Assembly: GCF_964204865.1 (NCBI RefSeq)
Contig: NC_135263.1
Location: 16,926,001 to 16,990,000, forward strand
Source of the DNA: Styela clava
Lineage: Eukaryota
Length of the DNA stretch: 64,000 nucleotides
Reading direction: 5' to 3'
Notes under the pieces: model-generated
The model's database searches: none
The model's input: the letters and a program-made list of their open reading frames with translations, nothing else
Told to the model about the DNA's origin: nothing
Position numbers and translations under genes: made by a program
Part shown: piece after piece, positions 23,177 through 48,153 of the stretch
Position numbering within the stretch: the stretch's first letter is position 1
Layout of the letters: each line of letters begins with the position of its first letter

Positions 23177-24520
23177 TGTCACGATATATTTCTATTGGAT
23201 TATGTTGTATTTGTAAACAAGACGTCCACTTTCCACCATGTTGACGTGCGCGCTCAGTTAGGCTAACAGGGAAACAAGTTTTGACTATCTGCCCACAAAT
23301 CCTATCCAATCACCGGTGCAAAAGCCATCAAAATAATCTTGCCATTTTCATCTTCATAGCTGTGTGAACACGGAATTTCTGCTTTGATTGGAATTAAATG
23401 CAATAATTAGAAGCAACTTCTTGGAATGAACGACGAAATGCGAGTGTGCTTGGCAATAACGGAACCATCTTATTTGTTCCTCAAAACACATCCATCGCAC
23501 CCACATTTGCAGAATAACTTTGTTTATTTGATTGTGCCGCAATTTTTTTTATTTGCTTACTGCGCCGCTGGCAAAAAAAATCATCTAGATTGAAAAACAA
23601 CAATATTCAAGTACTAATAGTTCATTATTGGACACGTTTAGTGGCCATAACGATCGTTTCAAAATTTTGTTGTTATTATTTTCTTTCGTCATTATCATTA
23701 AAAAATCGCTTTTCTCTTCGAATACTGGACCAATTGCTTTGAAATTTTCAGTGGTTAAAGATAAAATTTTTCTCCATAAGGCTATTACTTTTTTCCCGCT
23801 ATGACGTCATCAAAATTATTTCTCTTGGGTGGCGCTACGTGTCCATATATTTGAGCATAGCTCTCTTGTTACATATCACATCATATTAAATATCGAATAG
23901 GCTAACATCGTTTGCAGTTCATGTTGTTAATTAATTACGGATGATCCTAATAGTTTCGTTCGCACTAATCCTTTTTGAACAAACAATTTCAAAGCTTTTT
24001 TTTCCCGACGCCGAATGATTAAGAACGAACGGATGAAGGTTATCAGCGTGAGTATTGAGTACATGTAGTTTTTACAAAATTAATAAAATACAATTTTCTC
24101 AAAATTTCAATTATTTTCCAATGAAGACCTCGTAAGCCATATTGCACAGGACACCAATAAGTACGCATGTACGAAAATTGCTGGAGCAAACTACAGCCGA
24201 GATATATGTTCCAATCGGTCTGATTCTCAACATGGGAATCGTGGAGCTGTCAACTGTATCTGTAACGGAGCACTAAGCAGCCCTCTCAAACAACTCTCTT
24301 TAAATAAACCTGAGCCAAAATCGTTATCAGTTTCTCTACCAAGCAATGTTACACTGTTGTACAACTGACGAGCAAAACAGGATAAGAGGGGACAGAATAG
24401 ATGAAATGGTAAAAAAAATTATTGTCAACTGGCCAAAAGTATCTTTATTCATGCCGAAATCTTTTGGCCGACGAAACTGTGATTGAGTACAGTGGCAGAG
24501 TTTCAGTCAGATATGTGACA
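23177..24520 (+). mobile_element. Candidate 5' LTR of the downstream Gypsy element (interrupted by a HINE)
   Basis: Starts TGTCACGATAT and ends ATATGTGACA, with AATAAA at ~24303, just upstream of gag. The PBS is degenerate and no partner LTR was found. Confidence 0.35.
23625..23870 (+). mobile_element. Non-autonomous Helentron/Helitron2-type element (HINE), family A
   Basis: 5' TTATTGGACACG, asymmetric TIR partner CGTGTCCA near the 3' end, 3' hairpin GAGC-ATA-GCTC then TCTTGTT. Same ends as 37906-39131. Confidence 0.7.
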
Positions 24521-32781: not shown

Positions 32782-33140
32782 TATGGCATAAACCCCCTAG
32801 ATTTACCCCTATTTGAGTTGAAAAAACATAAAAACAACGTTTAATTTTTCCAACATTCTAACAGAGACTTTTCGTAGGGATCAAATTGTAGCACTTTAGG
32901 TTTTAGGAACATATTGTTATCAAATCAAAATTCATTCCTTCAGGATATTTAAACACAAATTTGAATAATAAGTGTTAAGTTCTCAACCGTACGAAGTACA
33001 TAATTGCTCGTATTGAGTTAGGAGTTTCTGCTTACGTGAATCACGAGATCACGTTTCCAATATTAACTGGATGTTTGATGAACGTGTATATTTATATATA
33101 AATATATATACAACTCGATATCTTTTCAATGTTAGATTAT
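32782..33140 (+). mobile_element. Diverged LTR related to the 41130/43028 LTRs
   Basis: Colinear blocks (AGACTTTTCGTAGGGATCAAATT, CCGTACGAAGTACATAATT, ACGTGAATCACGAGATCACGTTT, ACTCGATATCTTT). Begins TATGGCA. Right end unclear. Confidence 0.7.
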
Positions 33141-34219
33141 TCGCTCTGTGACAAAGCCTACCTTGAGCTAGTTTTAAAAGCAATAGAGATTTTTAATCAA
33201 GTGATTTAATTAGGTTGAGTGACGTTGTGGCCCATTACCCACCATTCTTCCCAGGGTAACGCAGTTTCAAATTAACGTAAGAGAAAAATTTATTTATAAT
33301 ATTTTGGAGTCGTGAAGCTAGAGCACATGAAAAATAATGTAGTTTGTTTATGCCCTCATCTTTGGAGCCGTGAAATAAGAGCTTTGCAATTGTTTAATAA
33401 GGGTTAGTGAGAGGAAACTCTGGAAGAAATTTGGCGTCGGCTATCGTGCTGACGGAATTGTCCGCTTTGAGAACTAGAGCTATCATTTTAATTTAAAATT
33501 AACCTACAGAGAATGCTTTAGAATCAGTCGCATAAAAAATAACAGTCAATATTTTTATACGTATTATCACATCATAAAAAAAACACAAAAGTAAATGTAA
33601 AAACGAGTAAAGAGAGAGTTAATAATAGCCGTCTCTAAGCTTGATATACTGCTCAAATCAGAACACCTGAGAAACAGCAGCTTCCAGAAAGTCATATTTT
33701 GTTGTGAGTGAGTGAAGGCTTATTGTTCACTATGAAACAGTGTGCGGTAAATATAATCGATGCGCTCATAAACTCCTGTAAAACTGCATATTCATCGTTA
33801 AGCTAATTTCCACTAAATGAAAAAAATGAAATTTTTTCATTTAGTAATCGATTAATATTTATATTAGTTCACTGATTTGTCGTTTTCTGATGATGAGGAA
33901 TTCGATAATATCATACGTGCAACAATACGTCAGGAGTGAGTAGGCTTCATCGGTTCAGTGTGACCATGACTGTTTATTATATTTTAATATACTCTCAATT
34001 CCGAGCTGAACGCGTTGCAACAGTGACACGGGATTTTATCGAGAAAATGAAGAGACGGAATCTCCATGTTGCAGTAAATCCTTGACTCCGCGCAAAAAAG
34101 TTGAACCCATTGGAAAAATGGCACGAGCTTTTATTACAGAGAGAAAAAAGTCAGAAACACCATCTCGCAGTGAAACCTTATCGTCAACACAAAAAGGTAA
34201 TGTGATTTTAAATTCCTGG

Positions 34220-34715: not shown

Positions 34716-35139
34716 CTTTTTAAACATCCTCTTTTTTATTTAATTGTGCGAGCGTGTACGTGCGATTTAATATTCCCTACTTTTTTGTTTAGTTTAAAAA
34801 TATTAGACCATACTAGTTATTAAATATGTGTTGCGATATCATATTCGTCAAAACCTATGTCTGATTCACAATCCACTTGCTCTCAAACTAAACTTTTCCT
34901 CCACCTAATGAAAGTTTAGTTAGACTGTTAGAGAATCAAGAATTATTGCGGTATAAGAAAATTCTATTAGCATAATGTGTGTATAATACGATGCATGTTT
35001 TATCTCGGCATGAATTTGATCTTGTGGCGTACATGGGAGCGAGCGGCCTTTGCTACGCGGAATGTTTAGCTGTTAAACACGCGTTGAGAGGCTTTGCCTA
35101 CTCGCAATCACCCGGATTGAATTTGAAAGAATTACGTGA

Positions 35140-37230
35140 TACTATGGGATATTGGGTCATTTAGCTGTTTTTGATTAATAGTTGTACGTGTTTGAACCCA
35201 AAGTCATCTAAGCTTAAAACAAACTCTTAGTCATAAAAACACGTAACAATTAGACGTCCAGTAGGCTACAATGACGATACCGTGTCATGCCTTGAGGATA
35301 CAAAACCAGCTTATAGATCATTAGTAAGAGAAAGAGAGGGGGGGGGGGGGCGATAACAAAGGGTAGTCAGAATTATCAGCTCGTGCGTGCATTAAAACTT
35401 GGATTTTGTATGGCTGTTAGCCTGCTTTGAACTGTTTATCTTTAGGCCTAAATATAGTCAATCTCAATATATGTCTTCAAAACCATAAGTATGTCTTCAT
35501 CAAATAAGATCAGAACAACAGAATTCGCCAGCGAACAATAGCAAATACCATTTTGTTTGCTACATTTTGGCATCCCCGACAAACAAACAGCGCCTTTTTG
35601 AGATGGGAGTCTGAAACTCACCGTAGGAAAGGTGACCCCAAAGACATCAACTGCACAAGCCGAGGGTAAAAAAATCAAGGAGAATCAAAAACAACAACCA
35701 AACAAAAAATCAGACCGTGTGAATAATATAGGAATAAAGCGAAAAACCAGACTATGACACAAAGAAAAAGACTATTATATTCAAAAATGTGTGTATAACA
35801 TTCACACTATACGGACTGTTATATTGAAAAAAATGTGTGTATAATATTTGCTCTATACGAACTGTTTTTTGAACAGAAAAAAAAAACTGTAAATAGAAAA
35901 ACTAGTCGGATGTCTTAACTACAAAAACAAATGAGACAGCAGAAACGAAAAAACTCCAGAAAGAAACGCCCGCGAATACACTTCAAGAAACCGCGCGATT
36001 ATAGCATTTTATATTGTATTAACATTATTTCAATTTCGTTTGAAAAATGAACAGGCATTCTTCTTCTTTACGGGTATTTCAAATTTCCTTCTTTCTTTAA
36101 GGTGTTCTATATTTGGTTCTAAACCCAACAAGGTTTGCTTAATTTTGGCAGATATTAGCATTCGTTTCCTTTTTAAATATACTTTACGTTTTACATTTTT
36201 TTCAAAATATAATTTCAAAACCGATTGAATTTCGAATTAGCTTATTAGGATGTATTGTATTTGCATAATCGCAAGTAAAATTATCATTTTTTTAAACGCC
36301 CAAAGAGACCGGATTTTTCTCACAATTATATCCATCGAGGCTCTTCAACGCAACAAGCGTAATTTTTATTATTTTTTTCAGCGCTTCAAAATTTACTAAC
36401 GTGAAACGAAGTGTATTAGAGCAAAGCATTTGTAGTATATAATCAGTCAGCTAAATTTAAAATAAACTGACGCCGTTTTTTTCAAACACTCTTCAACACA
36501 CACACACACAACAAATTCTGTCTCATAATCATACCTTCAACTTTCTTATGTTTTAAAGAATTTTGTTATAATTTGTGTGTTTTTTTCTCACTGCACGCCT
36601 AAGCTAGGCCACTTCCCCGCAGTTAAAGTAGGTGCATTGTACGGGATATTGGGTCATTTAGCTGCTTTTGGTTAATAGTACGTGTTTCAACTTAAAATTA
36701 TGCTAATCTTAAAATTAGAAACAAGTCCTTAGTCATAAAAACACGTAACCATTAGACCTCATGTAGGCTACAATGACGATGGCCACTGCTCCGCAGTGAA
36801 AGTAGGTGCATTGTATGGTATATTGGGTTGTTTAGCTGCTGTTGGTTCATAGTTGTACGTGTTTCAACTTAAAATCATTCTAATCTTAAATTTGAAACAA
36901 GCCCTTAGTCAAAAAATACGTAACAATTATACGTCCTGTAAGCTACAATGACCATACCGCGTCATGCCCCGGAGGATATCGAAACCAGCTTATAAACGAC
37001 CATTTGTTAGGAGAGAAGGGGGGAACGATAACAATGGTCAGTCAGAGTTATCAATTCGTACGTACATTGAAACTTGGATTTTGTCTGCTTGTTAGGCTGT
37101 TATGAACTGTTCATCTGTATGCGTAAATATTTTCAATCTCAATATATGAATTCGGAAACCGAGTATGTCTTCATAAGATAAGATCAGAACAACAGGATTT
37201 GCTAGCAAACAATAGAAAATACAATGCTGG
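35140..37230 (+). mobile_element. Non-coding LTR element (TRIM/LARD-like) in tandem arrangement
   Basis: Polypurine run, ~210-bp repeat ending TGCTACA (35564), PBS-like TGGCATCCCCGAC, ~1.45 kb without ORF, then polypurine GAGAGAAGGGGGG and a second repeat copy (~37025-37230). Internal ~175-bp duplication at 36610-36950. Confidence 0.6.
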
Positions 37231-37905
37231 TATTTTAGTGAGATTTTACTGTGGTTTTTTAAATTAATAATATTAAAGTAAGGAAAACCAGTTTGTTTGT
37301 TAAGACTTCAGAATTATAAACCTCCTCAACTTGTTTAGCTACTGGATATAATTGATTCAAACAGCCCCAAGTCATATCACAATGACGCATCAGTTTTAAT
37401 ATAATTTTGTCTGTTTCATACTTAATTAGTACATTTTCACTTATTGGTAATTAGTATATAAGCTACTAAATATTACTGATTGTTTCACCCTTTCGGATCG
37501 AAGCTTGATAATAAAGACATTGCCTCATTGAAGTGTGTCCGACAGACTGGGGAATCGGTGCAGCGCTATAAGTAGTGGATCAGGGTTCGCAGAGGTGGTG
37601 GGTCCTGTGGGTCCAGTCCGGTGAGCACGCTCGGCTTAAGCTTCAGCTAATTCATATTTAGTTAGCATAAGTGCAACAGGAAGTCCTTGATATAAAGAAT
37701 CATTGTCTGTATTTTACACGGGTCCTCTATTCGCTTGAGCTCATGTAAATTGACTGATGTGTATTCATCCCTTATAAAATATTTCTTGAATTGCGGAATT
37801 GTGTAGTTGAAGCACTCAACCCACTCGTACATTTCCAAGGCCTGTGAAACATAAAAGCATTTTTTAGCATATATTTAATCGGTCATTGAGGTTTATTGTT
37901 TATTG

Positions 37906-39131
37906 TTATTGGACACGAAATGGACATAACGATCGTTTCAATATTATGTTGGTCTTGTTGTTGTTCTTTGACACTTTTTGGACACCTAGTGGAAATATTA
38001 AAAAACCGCTTTTCTCTTTGATCACAGGACCGATTGCTTTGAAATTTTTAGTGGTTAAAGATGAAATTTTTCTCCAGAAGGCTATTACTTTTATTTATTT
38101 CAAATATTTCTGTTAGCTCTGTGAGATTTGTTTTTGTTTGCTATGACGTCACTGAACGTTCTGCGGACGCATATGCATGCACTCCTCTTTTTTGAACACG
38201 TGACATTGAACGTTGGCGTGACGGCGGATTCAGAAAGTCGTTGCAAATCGATTTCGAGGTTACCGGTGAATGGCGGTGATGCTAAAGGTACGGTAGACAG
38301 TACTGTACTGCTTCGCTTAGTGTGAATATATTTGTAGACGGAAGTTTAGAGGTACGGTAAACCGTACTTCACTGCTTCGCTTGGTGTGAATATATTTGTA
38401 GACTGTGGTCTAAAGATACGGTAAACCGTACCGGGACCTGTAGGCCTACCGGTACTGTACTGCTTCGCTTGGTGTGAATATATTTGTAGACCGTGGTCCT
38501 GTAGGCCTACCGGTACTGTACTGCTTCGCTTGGTGTGAATATATTTGTAGACTGTGGTATCTGCTGTTATAATACCGTGATAAATCGAATAAGTTAGTTT
38601 TGCTAATCGTCTGGCATTACAGGTGAGAGGGGGAATAGGGTGCGTATTTCCAATACGTCGATAATATCTTTGTCAACCAATTTGCGACCACTGTGTTTTT
38701 GTCTGTTTCATTGCTGTGATGTGGTGCTTTGTTTATTATTTGACCAGTTTTGTTCGAAATAACCGTGTTCTTAACATATATGACTGTCAGAAATGCAATT
38801 AGAAGCCCAATGTTTTTAAAGATAGAGAACTTCTGGTACCGTAACACAGCGCGGTGACACTGAACTAACTCGTAGCTGTCAAAAGCTTGAAAATCCATAC
38901 AAATATAAGAGATAAAAGGTTTTGCGTTTTTACATTTAAACGAGGGGGAATAGGGGGGTGCGCATTTCCAATACGTCGATAATATCTTTGTCAACCAATT
39001 TGCGACCGTGATTTTGTCTGTTTGATTGCTGTGATGGGGTGTGGTGCTTTGTTTATACAGGTACTGGTAAGTCATATGATTTTCGGGGAGTTATTTTGCG
39101 TGTCCATATATTTGAGCATTGCTCTCTTGTT
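37906..39131 (+). mobile_element. HINE family A copy carrying internal tandem repeats
   Basis: Same termini as 23625-23870. Four copies of ACTGCTTCGCTT(G/A)GTGTGAATATATTTGTAGAC at 38300-38555 and two ~110-bp repeats at ~38625 and ~38942. Confidence 0.75.
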
Positions 39132-39439
39132 ACACTTACTTTTAAAATCACTTCCGTGTATTTAGACCCGCAGGTATTCATTTGACTCTTATTTCTTTAT
39201 TTTTGATTGATTTGTGAATATTGAAAGAAACTTATTTGAGTTTTAATTAGGTACTGTAAATAGAAATAAAAAGTAATGGTGATATTAATGCACACGAAGA
39301 GAAATACATGATTTAAAAATATTCAGGAATAAGAAGCATGATATACGTACTTGTATCATCACATTATGAAACACAGAAATAAATGTAAAATCAAGTGAAA
39401 GATTGACGGTGAAATAAAATAACACACAGAAATTTATTT

Positions 39440-40576
39440 TGTTTTTATGTACTTTAAAGTTAACTTTAACTCCACCAGCAGGTTTTTTAGAGAAGAGGAC
39501 AGTTTGCATCCTGCTAAACGTGATATTCTGGTAAATATTTTGAAGTCCTTTAGCGGCAAATTTGAATGTATCAAAAATATGTTTTTGCACAAAGGCTCGA
39601 CTTTCGACTTTAAAAAGCCCCAGTGTGCGTTTATCGAACTTAAACTGTTTTATACAACATTCACGTGTATCGTCAAATGGTATTGTTTTTTTTTTATTAA
39701 AAATGAACTCGTGACGATGGGTTTCACAAGATTTGGAAGGAAACCACTTATGATAATTAATGTAAAATTGTTCTCGCATTTCTGGTTTTACCAAAATTTT
39801 TCAAATTTTTATTGGAAATAGCGGAATAACAGCTATCGATTCCCATTGACAAGTATTGATAGTCGGAAGAATGAAAGTATTTAGCAAAAAATTCATATTT
39901 CAGTTCTAACATGCGTAATTTTGCGACGACGAATCCAATCTGGTTGGGTAATTTCCACACAATCTGTTTTCTTTTTGAAGTTGGTTCAAATAAGTCGTCA
40001 CTAAGTTGAGTCGCTAACAAATGAAGGTTCATTGATCAGGTCGCGTGTTACATTACCATCACAGTATGCTATGTTACGGTAGTTCGCCAAAGTCTTTCCA
40101 TACGAAGAGTTCCCTGTAGATAGAAGGGTAGAATAAATAGTGAATAAAAATATTCACTAAGTATGAAACAAAACTTATTAATTATTTTTTAAATTATAAT
40201 TTTTATTTAAGTGTTACTAAATTTGTTATTAGTAAAATGAAACTTACAACTTATATGTATCAGCTAAAATTGCCTTTTCCGATGACATGTCACCATTTCC
40301 GCGAGCCATTGAAACTTCATTACAAAACGGCACGAAACATGCTTCGGGTTCATACTCGATAAATTGGTATATGTGGGTAATATGGAGATCGTGATCAAGA
40401 TACCATCGGACCAGGTCAGTGGCCAAAAGAATTTTATCACCAAAATAACTCCCTATAAGTGAACGTCTGGGCTGAGACATTGTTTTGTTATTAATCGCGT
40501 ACTGTCGCATAAGTTCACCGATATCGTCTCGATATACTAAAATATTTTTAAAAATTGGGGGCATTTCGCGAAGTCA
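39440..40576 (-). pseudogene. Protein-primed B-family DNA polymerase, C-terminal half, with intron ~40114-40247
   Basis: EMPPIFKN, RRSLIGS, ILLATDLVRWYL, motif B ADTYKL|GNSSYGK, LPNQIGF..AKLRMLE, motif C decayed to MGIDSCY, KRTLGLFKVE, AAKG. Confidence 0.9.
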
Positions 40577-40599
40577 TCGATACTGAAATATCAAATGAA

Positions 40600-40904
40600 A
40601 GCACGACCTTTTATCCGGAAAATCTGGACAACGGATAAGTATTGTTCCATTTTTCACACAAAAGGGGCAAAAGCTGTTGGTTCTGAAACTATTACATACT
40701 GGTGTTCGCATGGCCAGTGATGTACTGAATGGAAAAAGTATAAAGTCTTCCTTACGTGACCAGTCCAAACAAGCAGGTCGGAATTTATTAGGCAAAATTA
40801 CAGCACTTCCCAAGAGTATTAAAAGGAAGCGTAAATTGCAAATTGCCTTCAGTTCGAGACGACCTCGCAAACGCCAAAGAAAAGGGAGAGACATTTTCGA
40901 ATAA
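40600..40904 (+). pseudogene. Small basic Polinton core-like (DNA-condensing) protein remnant
   Basis: TGVRMASDVLNGKSIKSSL...KRKRK..RRPRKRQRKGRDIFE*, ending 1 nt before the capsid ATG, as is typical of Maverick gene order. Confidence 0.6.
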
Positions 40905-40905
40905 A

Positions 40906-43900
40906 ATGGCAAAACTTGTTCACGGTCTAAGCCCTGAGTGCGCTAAATCTGAAAGGTAACTAAACAGAACATCAATCAATCTCTACAATTAACCATGGTT
41001 CACCGATAGAATTTATTGTCCCGGCTGTTGATACTCAGTATCTCGATCTAGCGAATTCTCATCTCCACGTAAATATTAAAATTGTGACTGGTGATGGTAA
41101 TGATATCCCTGATGACGCCTTAGTAGCCCTATAGCAACTAACCACCAAATGTACCCCATTTCATGTTGATATCATCAAAACAAAGTTAATTTTTACCAAA
41201 ATTCGAACAAAGACTTTCGTTGGAATCAAATTACACCAGTTTTAAGAACCTAACATGTTCCACCCAGTCATCATCAAATTAAAATTTATATTCTCAAGAC
41301 CTTTGGAACTGATTGAAATAATTATATCTAAGTTTCCATCCGTACGATGTACATAATTACCCCTATTGAGATAATAGGAGTTTCTGTTTATAACGTGAAT
41401 CACGAACTCACGTTTACAGTATTTAATTAGATTTATGATCGACGTATAAATACGACTCGATATCTTTCAATGTTAAGCTAGTTTGGATAAATGTTTTAAG
41501 ATTTGTATTCTGTGTGTTGTGGAAATTTACGAATAAAAACATAAAAAGATTAATAACGTATCTTCATTCACGTGGGCGTGTAAGCTGAAGGGTGAACGGG
41601 TGACTTGCAAGTCAGAGACAATCTACAAATTAGCAATATACGGTGACATCACATTCATTTACCAATTATATGTATATGCTATAAATGGTGACAAAACCGA
41701 CTTGAATTAACCTTCTGAAACGGACCAGATTAACGGACAACAACCAGGACAGGCAACAATTGGATGGAATCAACCAAAAAAGCTGACCAAGCGAAAGATA
41801 AATTTCCTTTCCATCATCTAAAAACATATTAGTCGTTAATTGGGGCCATTGCTGATCTAATATCTGTTTTCTTTCGGCAGCTTTCAACAATTGCCGAGAA
41901 ACCGTTTCTACAAAACGTGCGAAAATCAAATTCGACCAACTTACGAACGTCGGGGAGATTCAAATTGCCTGGAACAACGATTGAAGTAGCAAATTGCTGA
42001 CAAGCCTAAATAATCAAAAGCATTATGAAAAGACAATAATCTCAATTGAAAGCAGTTGAACTATGGTAACGGACTCTGGAAACGTTAAAATCATGAATAT
42101 GGACTGTATTGAACATCGATCAAAATGAACTCTTTTAGAACATGATATATGTTCGAGGTGAAAACCCTGATCAAAAAACGAACTGTTGAAAACAATGAAC
42201 TATATGGACTGTTTTACGGTAAATCACGCGCTCTATTCCGAACAATAGAGAAATTATCGCGCATACCTAATGGATATACAGCTCAGGAGCATGGTATTTT
42301 ACAATTTGTTTCATGATTTGCAGGTTTTTCTCCTCATTGAGACAGACATTTTTCATTCTTCCACTATTACTACGATAAAGTACTTTTTTTATTCTTATAT
42401 ATACATGGCGTTTCGTTCGGCTTTCAATTTTTATAAATTAATTAATGGTAAGAGCTTTGAATATTCTAATTTCAAATATCTTTCAATAGATTTATATTAT
42501 TGAATATTTGTGGTTAGCATTCCTTTTCGATTAAATCGTTAGGATAAAAATGCTTTCTAAAAGTAGGTTCGAGCGAGTCATACTTTTAATTCTATACAAA
42601 GCCGTCATATAGAACGGTAAAATAATAAGCTCGTTTAACAAAAATTGTATCCAAAAGCGTTATTTTTTCAAAAAAGCTCTGAGATGGCATAAACTTACAA
42701 GCATATATTGACCAACTAGGTTTACAAAATCGTAACAATGCGATAAAGCGAGTATAAGTATTTTACCTTAGCGAAATACATTAAATTGAAAATATGTTTT
42801 AACCGTCCAAATCAAAATTTTTAAAATAGAAATACGCCATCCATCTGTAATTCTACTTTACCCTTTCTATAAACTCTTCTTTATTTCAATGTCTTGTCAC
42901 ATTGTAGATCATATACATGTAAATATTTTTTTGGCCTATAGCATTGTGTATTGTATTTTTCTATATATATTCAATTTATTAGAGGTGCCAAATCTTTAAA
43001 TTCCCAATTATCCGGAGGGGGAGATAATATAGCAACTAACCCCCAAATGTACCCCATTTCATGTTGAAATCATCAAAACAAAGTTAATTTTTCCCAAAAT
43101 TCGAACAAAGACTTTCGTAGGAATCAAATTACACCAGTTTTAAGAACATAACAGGTTCCACCCAGTCATTATCAAATTAAAATTTATATTCTCAAGACCT
43201 TTGGCACGGACTGAAATAATTATATCTAAGTTCCCATCCGTACGATGTACATAATTACCCTTATTGAGATAATAGGAGTTTCTGTTTATAACGTGAATCA
43301 CGAGCTCACGTTTACAGTATTTAATTAGATTTATGATCGATGTAAAAATACGACTCGATATCTTTCAATGTTGAGCTAGTTTGGATGAATGTTTTAAGAT
43401 TTGTTTTCTGTGTGTTGTGGAAATTTAGAGATTTTTAACGTATCTTCATTCACATGGGCGTTGAAGCTGAAGGGTGAACGGGTGACTTGCAAGTCAGAGA
43501 CAATCTACAAATTAGCAATATAAGGTGACATCATATTCATTTACCAATTATATATGCTATAGCCCCAGTTTCCAACTTTTCAAATTCAATGTGGAGACAG
43601 GTGGAAATTTCATTGAATGATGCAAATCTGAAAGGCAGTCACACAAACTACCCTTACCTAGACTACATTAACACTCTTCTCGAATTTGGCACGGAGGCTA
43701 AAAAATCGCAATTAAGCGGAGTTCTCTGGTTTCCTGAAAAGGCTTCACATTTTGAAGCTACTGGAAATGTAAACACAGGCTACCAGAAACGAAAATAATT
43801 CATCACTGGTAGTCGGAACTGTTGATATGGCTGGGAAATTATGTTCTGACAGATTTAATCAGTCAAGATATGTTAGTACCGAGTAGCGATGCATTTTGCT

Positions 43901-44575
43901 TACAGGCTGCTAACGCTGATACTGTCTACAAAGTAAAACTTTTAGATGTATCATTGTTCATAAGGCGGGTGGAAATAAGCCCTTCTGTTCAGCTGGGACG
44001 TAATACGGTGCTTAATACAAATAAAACGTGTATGTATCCAATTTCCAGGACCGAAGTTAAATATTTCTCAATCCCTCAAGGCGCTCTAAATGTTTCCAAT
44101 GAGAACTTATTTTCAGGGGTGTTACCCCATAAACTCATAATTGGTCTAGTGGACACTTTGAGCTATACTAATTCTATTACACACAACCCTTTCAATTTCA
44201 AACATTATGATACGAATTTTATTTGTTTGTATAAAAACGGAATTCAAATTCCGAGTACACCGCTAACCCCAGATTTTAAAATAGGAGATATATACGATGC
44301 TATCGATCACTTTTTCTCGGAACGCAAAGGTTTGGATTAGACGAGGGTATTCCTATTACACGAGAAGAATATCCCGGAGGAAATACACTACTTTGCTTCG
44401 ACTTGTCACCAGACTTGACATCGGGGATGACATTTGATTTAAAAGTGTATGGTTCATAAGGATCGAGATGAAATTTGCAAACCCTCTAAACAGACCCGTC
44501 ACCGCGATAATCTATAGTTAATTTGGCGCGTTAATAGAATTTGATCGAATGAGAAACGTGTATCCTGACTTTAAA
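40906..44575 (+). pseudogene. Polinton major capsid protein (hexon-like), interrupted by an LTR element at 41130-43561
   Basis: MAKLVHGLSPECAKSE, PIEFIVP..YLDLANSHLHV, QVEISLND..NYPYLDYINTLL, LFSGVLPHKLIIGLV..NPFNFKHY, CFDLSPD, IEFDRMRNV. Confidence 0.9.
41130..43561 (+). mobile_element. Full-length non-autonomous LTR element with TATAGCA...TGCTATA LTRs
   Basis: LTRs at 41130-41683 and 43028-43561, PBS-like TGGTGACAAAACCGAC at 41686, PPT GGAGGGGGAGA, and 4-bp TSD GCCC. Removing it restores the capsid frame LVAPVSNF. Confidence 0.92.
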
Positions 44576-44584
44576 TGGGTTAAA

Positions 44585-45038
44585 ATGAACACCGATGAAC
44601 TCGACTCCATATTACAAAATCATCCTGACACAAGGGGAATGATTTTAAAAATGATTGGACCAAATACCAAAGACCTAACCTCAAAAACCTTATGGATTCA
44701 TTATTATCAATACTGACCCAAGCGTGAAAGGTGGAAGCCACTGAGGATGCATATACGATGAGGGGGCGGACAAGCCAGAATATTTTGACAGTTTTGGAAT
44801 AATACCCTTCAAGCGAGCTTTTTTACAACTTTCTGGGTGATCATTTCAAGCTGAATACTAAGAGGTTACAATCTAACAAAGCAAAGGCTTGTGGCCAATA
44901 CTGCATTTACTTTTAATAAAACGTTGTCAAGGACTTTCTATGAAATCTATTGTGAACCACTTTGGGGATAATTATGCAGAAAATGATATAGCAGTTTTCA
45001 AGTATATACAACAAATTCAGAACCTTAAATTTAAATAA
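44585..45038 (+). pseudogene. Adenain-type cysteine maturation protease
   Basis: MNTDELDSIL..., IINTDPSVKGGSH*, EYFDSFG, RLQS..ACGQYC (His/Asp/Gln/Cys set). Stops and frameshifts. Confidence 0.9.
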
Positions 45039-45199
45039 ATTAAACACGGTACTTAGGATTCTTATCAGCTCTCAGTGGCATTACTTACAAGTCTTCTTCC
45101 ATTAACATGTGAATATGAACACACCTGCAATTTATTCTTTTTTATAAAAGTTCATATCATATACTTCATAATTCTAAAAAAACTATTTCTTCATTATTT

Positions 45200-45663
45200 G
45201 AGAACAATTTTACATTAATTATCATAATTGGTTTCCTTCCAAATCTTGTGAAACCAATCGTCACGGGTTCATTTTTAATGCAACAAACCTGTTACCATTT
45301 GACGATACACGTGAATGTTGTATAAAACAGTTTAAGTTCGATAAACGCACACCGGGGTTTTTTAAAGTCGAATTTTCTGGAGATACTTTTGTGGGCCTTT
45401 GTGCAAAAACATATTTTTGTCAAGGTAATAATACATTCGAATTTGCCGCTAAAGGACTTCAAAATATTCACCAGAATATCACGTTTAGCAAGATGCAAAA
45501 TGTTCTATTCTTTGAAAAACCTGCGGGTGGAGTTAACATTAACTTTGAAGTACATAAAAACAAAATATTTACCTATAAACAGTATCGAAATGCTATGCTT
45601 TACTTCTACGGGAAACGAAGAGTTCATAATGATGAAATTTCAACCAGTCCCTTGTTAATTTAA
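45200..45663 (+). pseudogene. Second, inverted copy of the pPolB C-terminus (~150 codons)
   Basis: EQFYINYHNWFPSKSCE...KRTPGFFKVEFSGDTFVGLCAKTYF..AAKG..YFYGKRRV..TSPLLI*. Reverse complement of ~39440-39776. Confidence 0.9.
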
Positions 45664-45785
45664 CTATCTTATTATTTTTGTTACGTTCATTAAATGTCTA
45701 CATTAATTAATATCAAGAAATTTCTGTGTGTTATTAAACCTCAATGACCGATTAAATATTTGCTGAAAAATGCTTTGTTTCACAG

Positions 45786-46049
45786 GCCTTGGAAATGTAC
45801 GAGTGGGTTGATGGCTTCAACTACACAATTCCGCAATTCAAGAAATATTTTATAAGGGATGAACACACATCAGTCAATTTACATGAGCTCAAGCGAATAG
45901 AGGACCCGTTTAAAATACAGACAATGATTCTTTATATCAAGGACTTCATGTTGCACCTAATGCTAACTAAATATGAATTTTTAGAAGATGTGGTGCCGCC
46001 AGTATTCTGGTTCGAAGAGTACTTAAAACTTAGAGACGGACATTACTAA
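45786..46049 (+). CDS. Polinton accessory ORF of unknown function (partial inverted copy at 37650-37845)
   Basis: Open 86-codon frame preceded by acceptor-like TTTGTTTCACAG. Lies between PolB and the terminus in both arms. Confidence 0.45.
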   Translation, partial: ALEMYEWVDGFNYTIPQFKKYFIRDEHTSVNLHELKRIEDPFKIQTMILYIKDFMLHLMLTKYEFLEDVVPPVFWFEEYLKLRDGHY

Positions 46050-46449
46050 CGTGACTTTTCACGTATTTACTTTTTACATTTTATTTTACACATTTTACAT
46101 TTTTTTTGTTTTTCGTGTGTGTGTGTGTGTGTTATAACGGTGTGATAATAAAGGAAAAATACCAACGGTGGTAATTTTTTTAAACGACGGATTCTAAAGC
46201 ATTCTCACTAAAATAGTGTAAAATGATAGCTCTATTAGCAAATCTTCCCTTTTGCGGTTTCAAAGATCAAAGAATAAGCAAAAATTTTTTTTTCGCTCAC
46301 GTTCACTTCAAACCACGTCACCCTGAAAGCTTAGACCGAGCGGTCTCACCGGACTGGACCAACCGGAAGACCTACCGGAGGACCCACAGGACCCACCGTC
46401 TCTGCGAACCCTGATCCACTACTGGTATACGTCGTGTGACAATAGAGGA

Positions 46450-48153
46450 AACGTCTTCTTATTCAAACCAATAAATTAGCCTGAAATATATAAATAAGGC
46501 TATACCTTTTCTATTCATTCGTTATCTGCTGGGGTGAGCTCTTCCATAACTGAGTCAGAGGGAATTCGTGTGCTGGGTTAAACTTTAGTTAACCGATAAG
46601 AAGTTTTAAGCGGGCCATTATCACTCTGCGATCTCGGATTCGACAATTGGTTACATTTTCAACGTAAAGATTGACTATGGCAATCTATATTTGGACTTCC
46701 ACCCGGCGTTACGAAGACTATGACGATGTATTCGTAAATATATACAATTGCAATACATGTTATTCGAAACTATGAACATGTCCTTGTCGGATCAGACAAA
46801 CACTGGTTTGTTTAGCTAGCCAACAACCAAAAATTAATTACTTTACTGAATCCTACATTGGTGACCCGGCAAACGAACTGCGCCTTGCGAAAAAGAGTCA
46901 GAACATCAACCGCTGGAAAGGTGACCCCGAGAATATCAACTAAACAAGCCGAGGGTAAGATGAAAAAAAAAAATAATTCGATACCAATCAAAATTCAGAC
47001 CGTGCGATTAACCAAGGAATAAGAGCAAAAAACAGGGCGTAAGCAACTATCACAGAAAAAGTTATATTAAAAAATGTGTGTAAAACATTCACACGTTTGG
47101 ACTGGTATATTTAAAGAAATGTGTGCAACGCAATCGCACTATAACGAATGTTTTTATACCCGAGAAAAAACCGTTATAATTAAAAACTAGTCAGACAGAA
47201 AGAAATGAAAGTATGAAACGCAAAGAACTTCAGAAATAAATGCCCACGAATGAACCTGAAAGAAATCGCGCGATCATTACAGTATACTATTGTATTTTAT
47301 TATTTTCAATTTCGTGTACAAAGTGGACAAAGTTCTTCTTATTTCATATTTTCTTCTTTCTAATCATAACGGTCAAAACAATCTTACAAAAGCTTTGATG
47401 TATTTTCATAAACGCATGTAAAATCTTCATTTTTTCAAAACCCAAATAGCTTTATCATTTTTCACAGCAGCCAGCAAGACAATGAGTGATTTTTTTTCAG
47501 CGCTTCAAAATTTATTGATGTAAATGAGGTGTATTAGAGCGAAGCATTTGTAGTTATCTGTCAGCTGAATTAAAAAAATTACCTAACGCCAACCCTTTTC
47601 TTATTTAAAAACAGCATAACACACACCCACACATTCTTTCTCATAATCATAATTTCATCTTTATGTTTTTATAAATTTTGTTACATTTCGTGTATTTCTT
47701 TTTTCACTGCACGCACGAGCTTGGTCACTGTTCCGCATTAGTAGCAGAGGCATTATATAGGATATTGGGTAATTTATCTGCCTTTGGTGAGTAACTCAAA
47801 GTTATCCTAATCTTTCGCGGACAATAAAATTAGAAGCACGTACAGAGTAATAAAAGTGGCAATTAGACGACCTGTAGGCTGCAATGACATGCCATCGGGA
47901 TACCGAAACAAGGTAATGAATGACCACTCGTTAGGCGGGAAAAGGGATGATTTTGAACAGTGGGTAGCTGGAACAATTAACAACTCGACATGCGTGAAGT
48001 GTAATTTCGGATTTTGTCTGGCTTATCAGCCGGAATTGTTCATCTGTATACGTAAATATATACAATTCTATAGTATGTTTTGTAAATTATGAATATGTCT
48101 TTGTCAGAATCAAGTTTAGCCAACAACTTGAAATAACTTTATTAAACCCTACA
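46450..48153 (+). mobile_element. Non-coding LTR element related to 35140-37230
   Basis: LTR end TCCTACA (46857), PBS TGGTGACCCGG, internal region colinear with 35565-37020, purine run ~47933-47947, and 3' repeat ending CCCTACA (48153). Left boundary is approximate. Confidence 0.6.

Follow-up and report, generated by a model that had tools for sequence, protein, structure and literature searches.

The 64,000-nucleotide stretch analysed here (the window) belongs to Styela clava (assembly GCF_964204865.1, contig NC_135263.1, positions 16,926,001-16,990,000 of the forward strand), and at 37571-46423 it carries a single decayed insertion of a Polinton (or Maverick) that has the end of its protein-primed family B polymerase gene (PolB) at both of its termini. 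The insertion opens with AGTAGT at 37571 and closes with ACTACT at 46423, between the flanks GCTATA and GGTATA. These form a target-site duplication (TSD) with 5/6 matching positions, and the probability of at least 5/6 by chance is 0.0067 given the local base composition. Terminal inverted repeats (TIRs) ending in (AGT)2 together with a 6-bp TSD define Polintons in PMC8097293; the PolB, capsid and protease remnants of the window are also those of the family, which takes in the polintoviruses and adintovirus-like elements. Once two later insertions are subtracted, 5,191 bp remain. An earlier sequence-only reading of the window had already given these termini, the imperfect TSD and a size of about 5 kb, all of which are borne out. 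Other loci of the same genome are named by contig and coordinates (C1, C2, C3, C4, C6, C8, C16 and so on), four of them in short: C2 (C2:12758297-12774269), C6:22.99 (C6:22988029-23005506), C6:22.82 (C6:22819597-22835379) and C16 (C16:21050022-21061321). From left to right, the window element and its flanks are made up as follows.

37565-37570, no strand: left target-site copy GCTATA (flank comparison)
37571-37643, plus: left terminus AGTAGT and shortened terminal repeat (self-comparison)
37649-37909, minus: accessory open reading frame (ORF), left copy, truncated (frame matching)
37910-39108, limits approximate, no strand: later insertion of 1.2 kb with short inverted ends (sequence comparison)
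39132-39438, minus: spacer between PolB and accessory ORF, left arm only (matches C6 and C16 arms)
39435-40567, minus: PolB 3′ part, left copy, with frame changes and one stop (homologues matching PF03175)
40568-40637, no strand: internal Polinton island of 70 bp between two deletion junctions (93% to C6:22997782-22997851)
40638-40901, plus: 3′ part of a basic ORF, adjoining the capsid gene (frame matching, no family match)
40879-44509, plus: major capsid gene, broken, split by a long terminal repeat (LTR) element (frame matching to C2)
41130-43561, plus: later LTR-type insertion of 2.4 kb (repeats 41130-41683 and 43028-43561)
44579-45026, plus: adenovirus-like protease gene, broken (frame matching to C2)
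45027-45199, no strand: non-coding DNA past the protease (unmatched at all loci fetched)
45200-45663, plus: duplicated PolB 3′ end, 153 codons, starting at the replacement junction 45200 (self-comparison, contigs)
45733-46049, plus: accessory ORF, right copy (frame matching)
46050-46423, plus: right subterminal region, terminal repeat and terminus ACTACT (self-comparison)
46424-46429, no strand: right target-site copy GGTATA (flank comparison, read-derived contig)

From 45200 onward, the PolB end, copied in inverted orientation, takes the place of the protease-side end of the element: 173 bases past the protease the sequence turns into that end, at the cost of non-coding DNA only and of no gene. 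Such a replacement of one terminus by an inverted copy of the other is the hallmark of copy-back genomes. Self-comparison, the dot-plot check proposed by the sequence-only reading, returns three inverted blocks: PolB (39435-39775 against 45200-45567), the accessory ORF (37649-37895 against 45735-45979) and the terminal repeat. In the right arm, PolB accounts for 153 codons (45202-45660) and the accessory frame for 97, close to the 150 or so codons and accessory ORF announced. That its 1.2 kb would be an inverted copy of the left arm has to be amended: the PolB end is indeed inverted, but only 662 (341+244+77) of the 1,224 bases pair with the present left arm. Set against the fuller arm of C6:22.99, the left arm lacks the final PolB codons and about 350 subterminal bases, while the right arm lacks a 300-bp spacer. 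Since the two arms lost different pieces, the right one is no copy of today's left one, and on this comparison both are separately decayed descendants of one longer arm. The right arm is also a mosaic, its PolB part (within 45200-46423) being 94% identical to C6:22.99 and its accessory and terminal parts only 73-81%, which suggests module exchange among lineages.

Mapped onto C2, the window retains the 3′ part of PolB, the 70-bp island, the 3′ part of the basic ORF, the capsid and the protease. As the sequence-only reading had stated, integrase, ATPase, minor capsid and N-terminal PolB are unrecognisable: 14 query frames (13 from C2 plus the accessory frame) find no match to the retroviral-like integrase, the packaging ATPase, the ORF in the minor-capsid position or the PolB N-terminus in the window, and the copy is a deletion derivative, not an autonomous Polinton. 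The deletion junction which that reading placed near 40577 exists, but as two junctions, 40567 and 40637, on either side of the island. Position 40567 as a common boundary or splice site is ruled out, being a deletion private to the window. The remnants of the double jelly-roll capsid and of the protease are 56-81% identical to the C2 frames in most segments (37% in one). In C2 itself the capsid protein is assigned, at 0.98, to clusters that have PF21738 in 15-30% of their members; the recognition value, 2010, lies under the tool's 2300 mark. The C2 protease has a weak Pfam match (E 0.0012). The C2 PolB fragment has no direct Pfam match; four of the six homologues scanned match PF03175, three above the cut-off, which is why the 3′ fragments of the window are called PolB. 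Pfam searches with 11 window frames gave a single sub-threshold match, and sequence searches of the PDB gave none for the capsid and only matches of E above 0.06, including Vsr endonuclease, for PolB. The basic ORF at 40638-40901 is presumably core-protein-like, a label with no family match behind it. Within PolB, a putative GT-AG intron-like segment (40114-40247) stands at the same place in C2 and C6:22.99, whereas intact vertebrate Polintons are described as intronless (PMC8097293).

Could the doubled end come from two separate insertions, or from a misassembly? The TSD is imperfect, no record extends across the whole element, no read-derived piece is listed across the 40567 junction, and a search for the empty site with the right flank returned internal repeats only. 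Against this, a chance TSD is as rare as given above, contigs bridge 45200, 40637 and the right terminus, and the same build occurs elsewhere with perfect TSDs, so that either explanation is very improbable. Contigs from runs X1 and X2 span 44408-45321 and 46141-46581, including the 45200 junction and the right terminus, with zero substitutions; five letters inserted in the X1 contig near 44651-44653 are distant from the junction. Both runs come from one sample, possibly the assembly's own, and are not independent of the assembly. In run X8 (a different sample, 6% of the reads), 2 of 30 bins of window 39150-41150 are covered, with partial matches of 90-99% elsewhere.

C2 is the one element found in the genome with the full gene order. 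It has a 6/6 TSD and TIRs of 338 bp without genes, and reads on one strand protease, capsid, basic ORF, 305-codon ORF, integrase, two ORFs, ATPase and OB-fold ORF, and on the opposite strand 207-codon ORF, PolB and accessory ORF. Its integrase carries a chromodomain; an integrase and an ATPase are also present in C6:22.99. Used as a query, the duplicated PolB piece gave 37 matches (45/45 candidates scored) that group into 12 regions, and both ends and flanks could be placed in six of them, on which the following count rests; C1, C13, C14, C6:22.916, C8:2.425 and C8:3.09 are left out, the second terminus not being found in the fetched DNA. The PolB end is doubled in four clear cases (the window, C6:22.99, C6:22.82 and C8) and one probable case (C16), C2 being canonical. 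C6:22.99 has 3.9-kb arms and a 6/6 TSD, ATCTTC; C6:22.82 has 2.6-kb arms and flanks that match at only 4/6; the C8 insertion consists of PolB-end sequence only and has a 6/6 TSD, GACATC. C16 (TSD 5/6) is only probable because its right end is tandemly rearranged and contains the accessory ORF without PolB. Among those left out, C14 may be a further case (its opposed ends differ at 14/171 positions), and C13, with 64/276 differences, is probably two elements. In the window the switch lies past the protease, 153 codons ahead of the PolB stop; elsewhere the breakpoint adjoins the integrase, falls within the 305-codon ORF or, on C8, joins PolB to PolB. The terminal sequences vary too, with one type common to C6:22.82 and C8. 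As both breakpoints and terminal sequences differ, these duplications are probably independent events. The sequence-only reading had proposed looking for its 45200 and 40577 junctions at independent loci; neither 45200 nor 40567/40637 occurs at any other locus fetched.

That reading had also considered a family with unusually long, gene-containing TIRs, that is, a stable lineage in which a TIR of about 1.5 kb is fixed and which would have left the window element as a fossil. Intact vertebrate TIRs do reach 1,447 bp (PMC8097293), butterfly Polintons have TIRs of about 2 kb with hexon and adenain (10.1101/2025.02.07.637071), and the assembly holds no element of full gene order with the window's own type of terminus. 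Runs X5 and X8, from two other samples, moreover contain sequence that matches the window's protease and its PolB end alike (44636-45700) at 96-98%, with differences in common and the junction not seen, which suggests a closer relative missing from this assembly. But the inner boundaries differ in all PolB-doubled insertions, the TIRs of C2 are gene-free, the larger PolB-doubled insertions are without capsid genes, and C6:22.82 and C8 are 88-95% identical to the short-TIR C2. A fixed long TIR is accordingly improbable, if less so than an assembly artefact. With capsid, protease and C2 protease-side DNA as queries, only the window, C2 and a distant remnant on C3 were found, and no inverted duplication of the protease end, which suggests a bias toward the PolB end. 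Outside this genome, relatives were found at 0 loci in viral contigs and at none in metagenome contigs.

When were the arms copied? An arm copied after long decay in the chromosome should leave the same lesions in both arms. Over 109 codons the window arms differ by 4.8 synonymous and 22.2 non-synonymous changes (pN/pS 1.08), share zero indels or stops, and have one change common to both arms only, against 11 and 12 private ones. With 44/662 differences, they diverge no less than the repeats of the later-inserted LTR pair (26/534, p 0.22). This neutral divergence without common lesions indicates that the arms were probably identical at insertion. In C6:22.99 (825 codons), the changes shared by the arms are 31 synonymous and 17 non-synonymous, the private ones 12 and 41 (p 2e-5), with no common stop; the shared changes being mostly synonymous and the private ones not, the template was under selection until copied. 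On C8, two copies with flanks 90-95% identical and one TSD are duplicates of one insertion. Between these duplicates, arms of the same side have 19 and 5 changes in common and arms of opposite sides 0-1, so the double-ended form is older than the locus duplication and its arms were alike from the start. The central junctions of the two duplicates differ, so such junctions move by deletion after insertion. In a tree of arms (4 short arms of 20 left out), the window's two arms are not resolved as sisters.

These data bear on a chromosomal origin, in which a normal Polinton integrates and the host repairs a break near one end from the other end. Such an extension preserves the TSD; Marzo et al. 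describe this route, proposed for the TIRs of Galileo, and cite Polinton inverted-repeat expansion (PMC3573991), and the C6:22.82 arms have neutral-looking changes and a stop in common. The arms of the window, C6:22.99 and C8, however, have no common lesions, terminal and internal divergence in the window are alike (7/77 versus 37/585, p 0.33, a comparison of weak power), and several independent events would be needed, each soon after insertion and always in one direction. We regard chromosomal extension as unlikely, though it is the strongest of the competing explanations.

That Polinton derivatives can move in trans is indicated by a family distinct from that of the window element. The terminal repeat of C2 leads to gene-less palindromes of 13.5-13.8 kb on C19, C1, C4 and C8, to two on C18, and to shorter copies; the family is also represented on C2. 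The copy at C19:11194290-11207937 has two arms of 6,260 bp that are 99.7-99.98% identical and enclose a centre of 1.1 kb. It lacks any frame of 120 codons, and 14 Polinton proteins compared with three palindrome copies gave zero matches. The palindromes carry the C2 terminal repeat at 96%, and some copies are 99.8% alike, a sign of recent spread. Seven insertions have distinct TSDs (five 6/6, two 5/6). In 7/7 elements examined (3.3 kb per arm), each arm has the other arm of its own element as sister in the tree, while the elements differ by 0.2-5%. Read together, these comparisons indicate that fold-back Polinton derivatives spread helper-dependently in this genome, with their arms homogenised. 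Relatives of the arm interior (66-83%) lie on C2, C5, C9 and C17.

Was the window element itself such a passenger, a compact genome of about 5 kb that had already lost integrase, ATPase and most of PolB and was copied and inserted in trans? The 5,191 bp that are left, the palindromes at separate sites with their own TSDs, which show that movement in trans occurs here, and the continued mobility of butterfly Polintons without polB (10.1101/2025.02.07.637071) speak for it. Against it, neither the 40567 nor the 40637 junction is found in a second copy among the loci fetched, and the differing central junctions of the C8 duplicates show deletions arising in the chromosome. This is again unlikely, marginally more so than repair in the chromosome.

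The explanation we favour, with a probability of about 0.5, is that a template switch during extrachromosomal replication, before integration, gave the protease side a second PolB end. Adenovirus replicates by strand displacement, and its displaced strands form panhandles. A displaced Polinton strand would likewise pair with itself at its terminal repeats; on the protease side, a 3′ end that is broken or changes template would then be elongated along the PolB arm. This would restore a complete AGTAGT end, acceptable to the integrase, and leave two complete ends. Polinton PolB has a terminal-protein domain (PMC11071308), and the polymerase would be the agent of the switch. When it inserted, the window copy probably still had the greater part of its genes; the two central deletions and the two transposon insertions likely followed integration. 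The copy-back structure advanced by the sequence-only reading is upheld: it has one TSD and recurs with other breakpoints, and C2 has no gene-containing TIRs; that the element was already a defective genome of about 5 kb when it integrated is not established.

Several points weigh against this explanation. Chromosomal copying soon after insertion would look like copying before insertion, at any locus. The window sample is small (109 codons), and the window's PolB and accessory parts diverge unequally (29/341 versus 8/244, p 0.01), about 7 of the 29 PolB differences clustering beside a gap. In C6:22.82, 8 changes are common to both arms (33 and 37 are private), and the coding ones among the 8 are 0 synonymous and 5 non-synonymous, with one common stop; this is consistent with an arm copied once decay had begun, or with passage of the element in defective form. 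No two independent insertions have the same junction. The end bias, 5:0 at best (p 0.06) or 4:0 (p 0.125), is too weak for a firm claim, and the locus search started from PolB-end queries. As for the palindromes, their sister arms could come from chromosomal gene conversion or assembly polishing.

The surroundings add further observations. The insertion at 37910-39108 is probably a non-autonomous DNA transposon, and related pieces lie at window 23625-23873 and at other loci. The LTR-type element has a 4-bp target copy (GCCC), TGG past its first repeat and a purine tract ahead of the second; its repeats start with TATAGC and end with GCTATA, not TG..CA, and a 70% relative lies at window 32791-33091. 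Remnants of an older second Polinton (accessory ORF, subterminal DNA, 207-codon ORF) occupy window 33475-33717 and 34931-35140, 2-4 kb left of the element. C6:22.99 contains a tandem duplication of its ATPase/OB-fold module (C6:22993000-22997400). At C6:22981137-22985075, a MULE transposase frame and a glycoprotein-B-like frame (476 codons, matching herpesvirus glycoprotein B at E 2.7e-8, under the cut-off) lie between two same-flank copies of a Polinton left end. C8:2989073-2997944 and C14:2882292-2886268 are distant Polinton remnants with 30-57% amino acid identity in most segments and another gene orientation. Termini related to those of the window occur at C5:8827618, C9:13941503, C4:8.90 Mb, C9:11.74 Mb and C14:17.21 Mb; several such elements (the C5, C9, C4 and C14 set) have inverted arms of 0.5-2.7 kb and no match to the 14 Polinton proteins.

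How do these elements compare with known systems? Vertebrate Polintons have TIRs of 46-1,447 bp, and 96% of their copies are defective (PMC8097293); 100-1,500 bp is the general range (PMC10748475). Unlike them, the window element has the PolB end at both termini and has lost integrase, ATPase and most of PolB. Core genes doubled within the inverted ends of one insertion are also seen in the butterfly Polintons of the Pannagram preprint (10.1101/2025.02.07.637071), but there hexon and adenain are doubled in full-length elements, whereas here it is part of the PolB end, with variable breakpoints and in decayed copies. Copy-back and snap-back viral genomes also have one end copied in reverse onto the other, and near-full palindromes resemble the gene-less family; such viral genomes are mainly described from negative-strand RNA viruses (PMC13506859), while the present forms are integrated DNA with TSDs. 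In Galileo and foldback elements, internal sequence is likewise drawn into inverted repeats of variable length, a TIR extension proposed as chromosomal repair, whereas most arms here are without common post-insertion lesions (PMC3573991). The Polinton inverted-repeat expansion cited there is from Jurka et al. 2007. Gene-containing TIRs in Polintons, like the expansion of TIRs, have been published before. At a nematode locus, Polinton remnants derive from the PolB end (PMC11414722), and in adenovirus the packaging signal adjoins one inverted terminal repeat. No description of copy-back Polintons was found in the literature searched, and some foundational papers outside that coverage may describe such forms. 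The parts are known already; what appears to be new is the series itself, recurrent, dated and PolB-sided, within a single genome.

To our knowledge, the replication mode of Polintons is inferred from gene content and has not been observed. Recurrent end replacement with initially identical arms is the footprint expected of protein-primed replication with fold-back repair. Animal assemblies can be scored for it with no experiment at all. A wider proposal, which we hold more tentatively than the origin of the window element, is that animal Polintons replicate extrachromosomally as linear viruses and routinely yield copy-back or snap-back defective genomes, preferentially of the PolB end, which are inserted by a helper integrase. 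If so, the genome of S. clava would keep a graded series, from short TIRs through gene-containing arms and PolB-only fold-backs to palindromes of 13.6 kb that hold no genes and have their arms renewed in every round. It would be an endogenous fossil record of DNA-virus defective genomes, with a cis signal mapped to the PolB end, and a consistent bias toward that end would place an origin or a packaging signal. In practice, TIR length and gene-containing TIRs are unreliable as traits of a family, and searches based on genes miss large palindromic derivatives.

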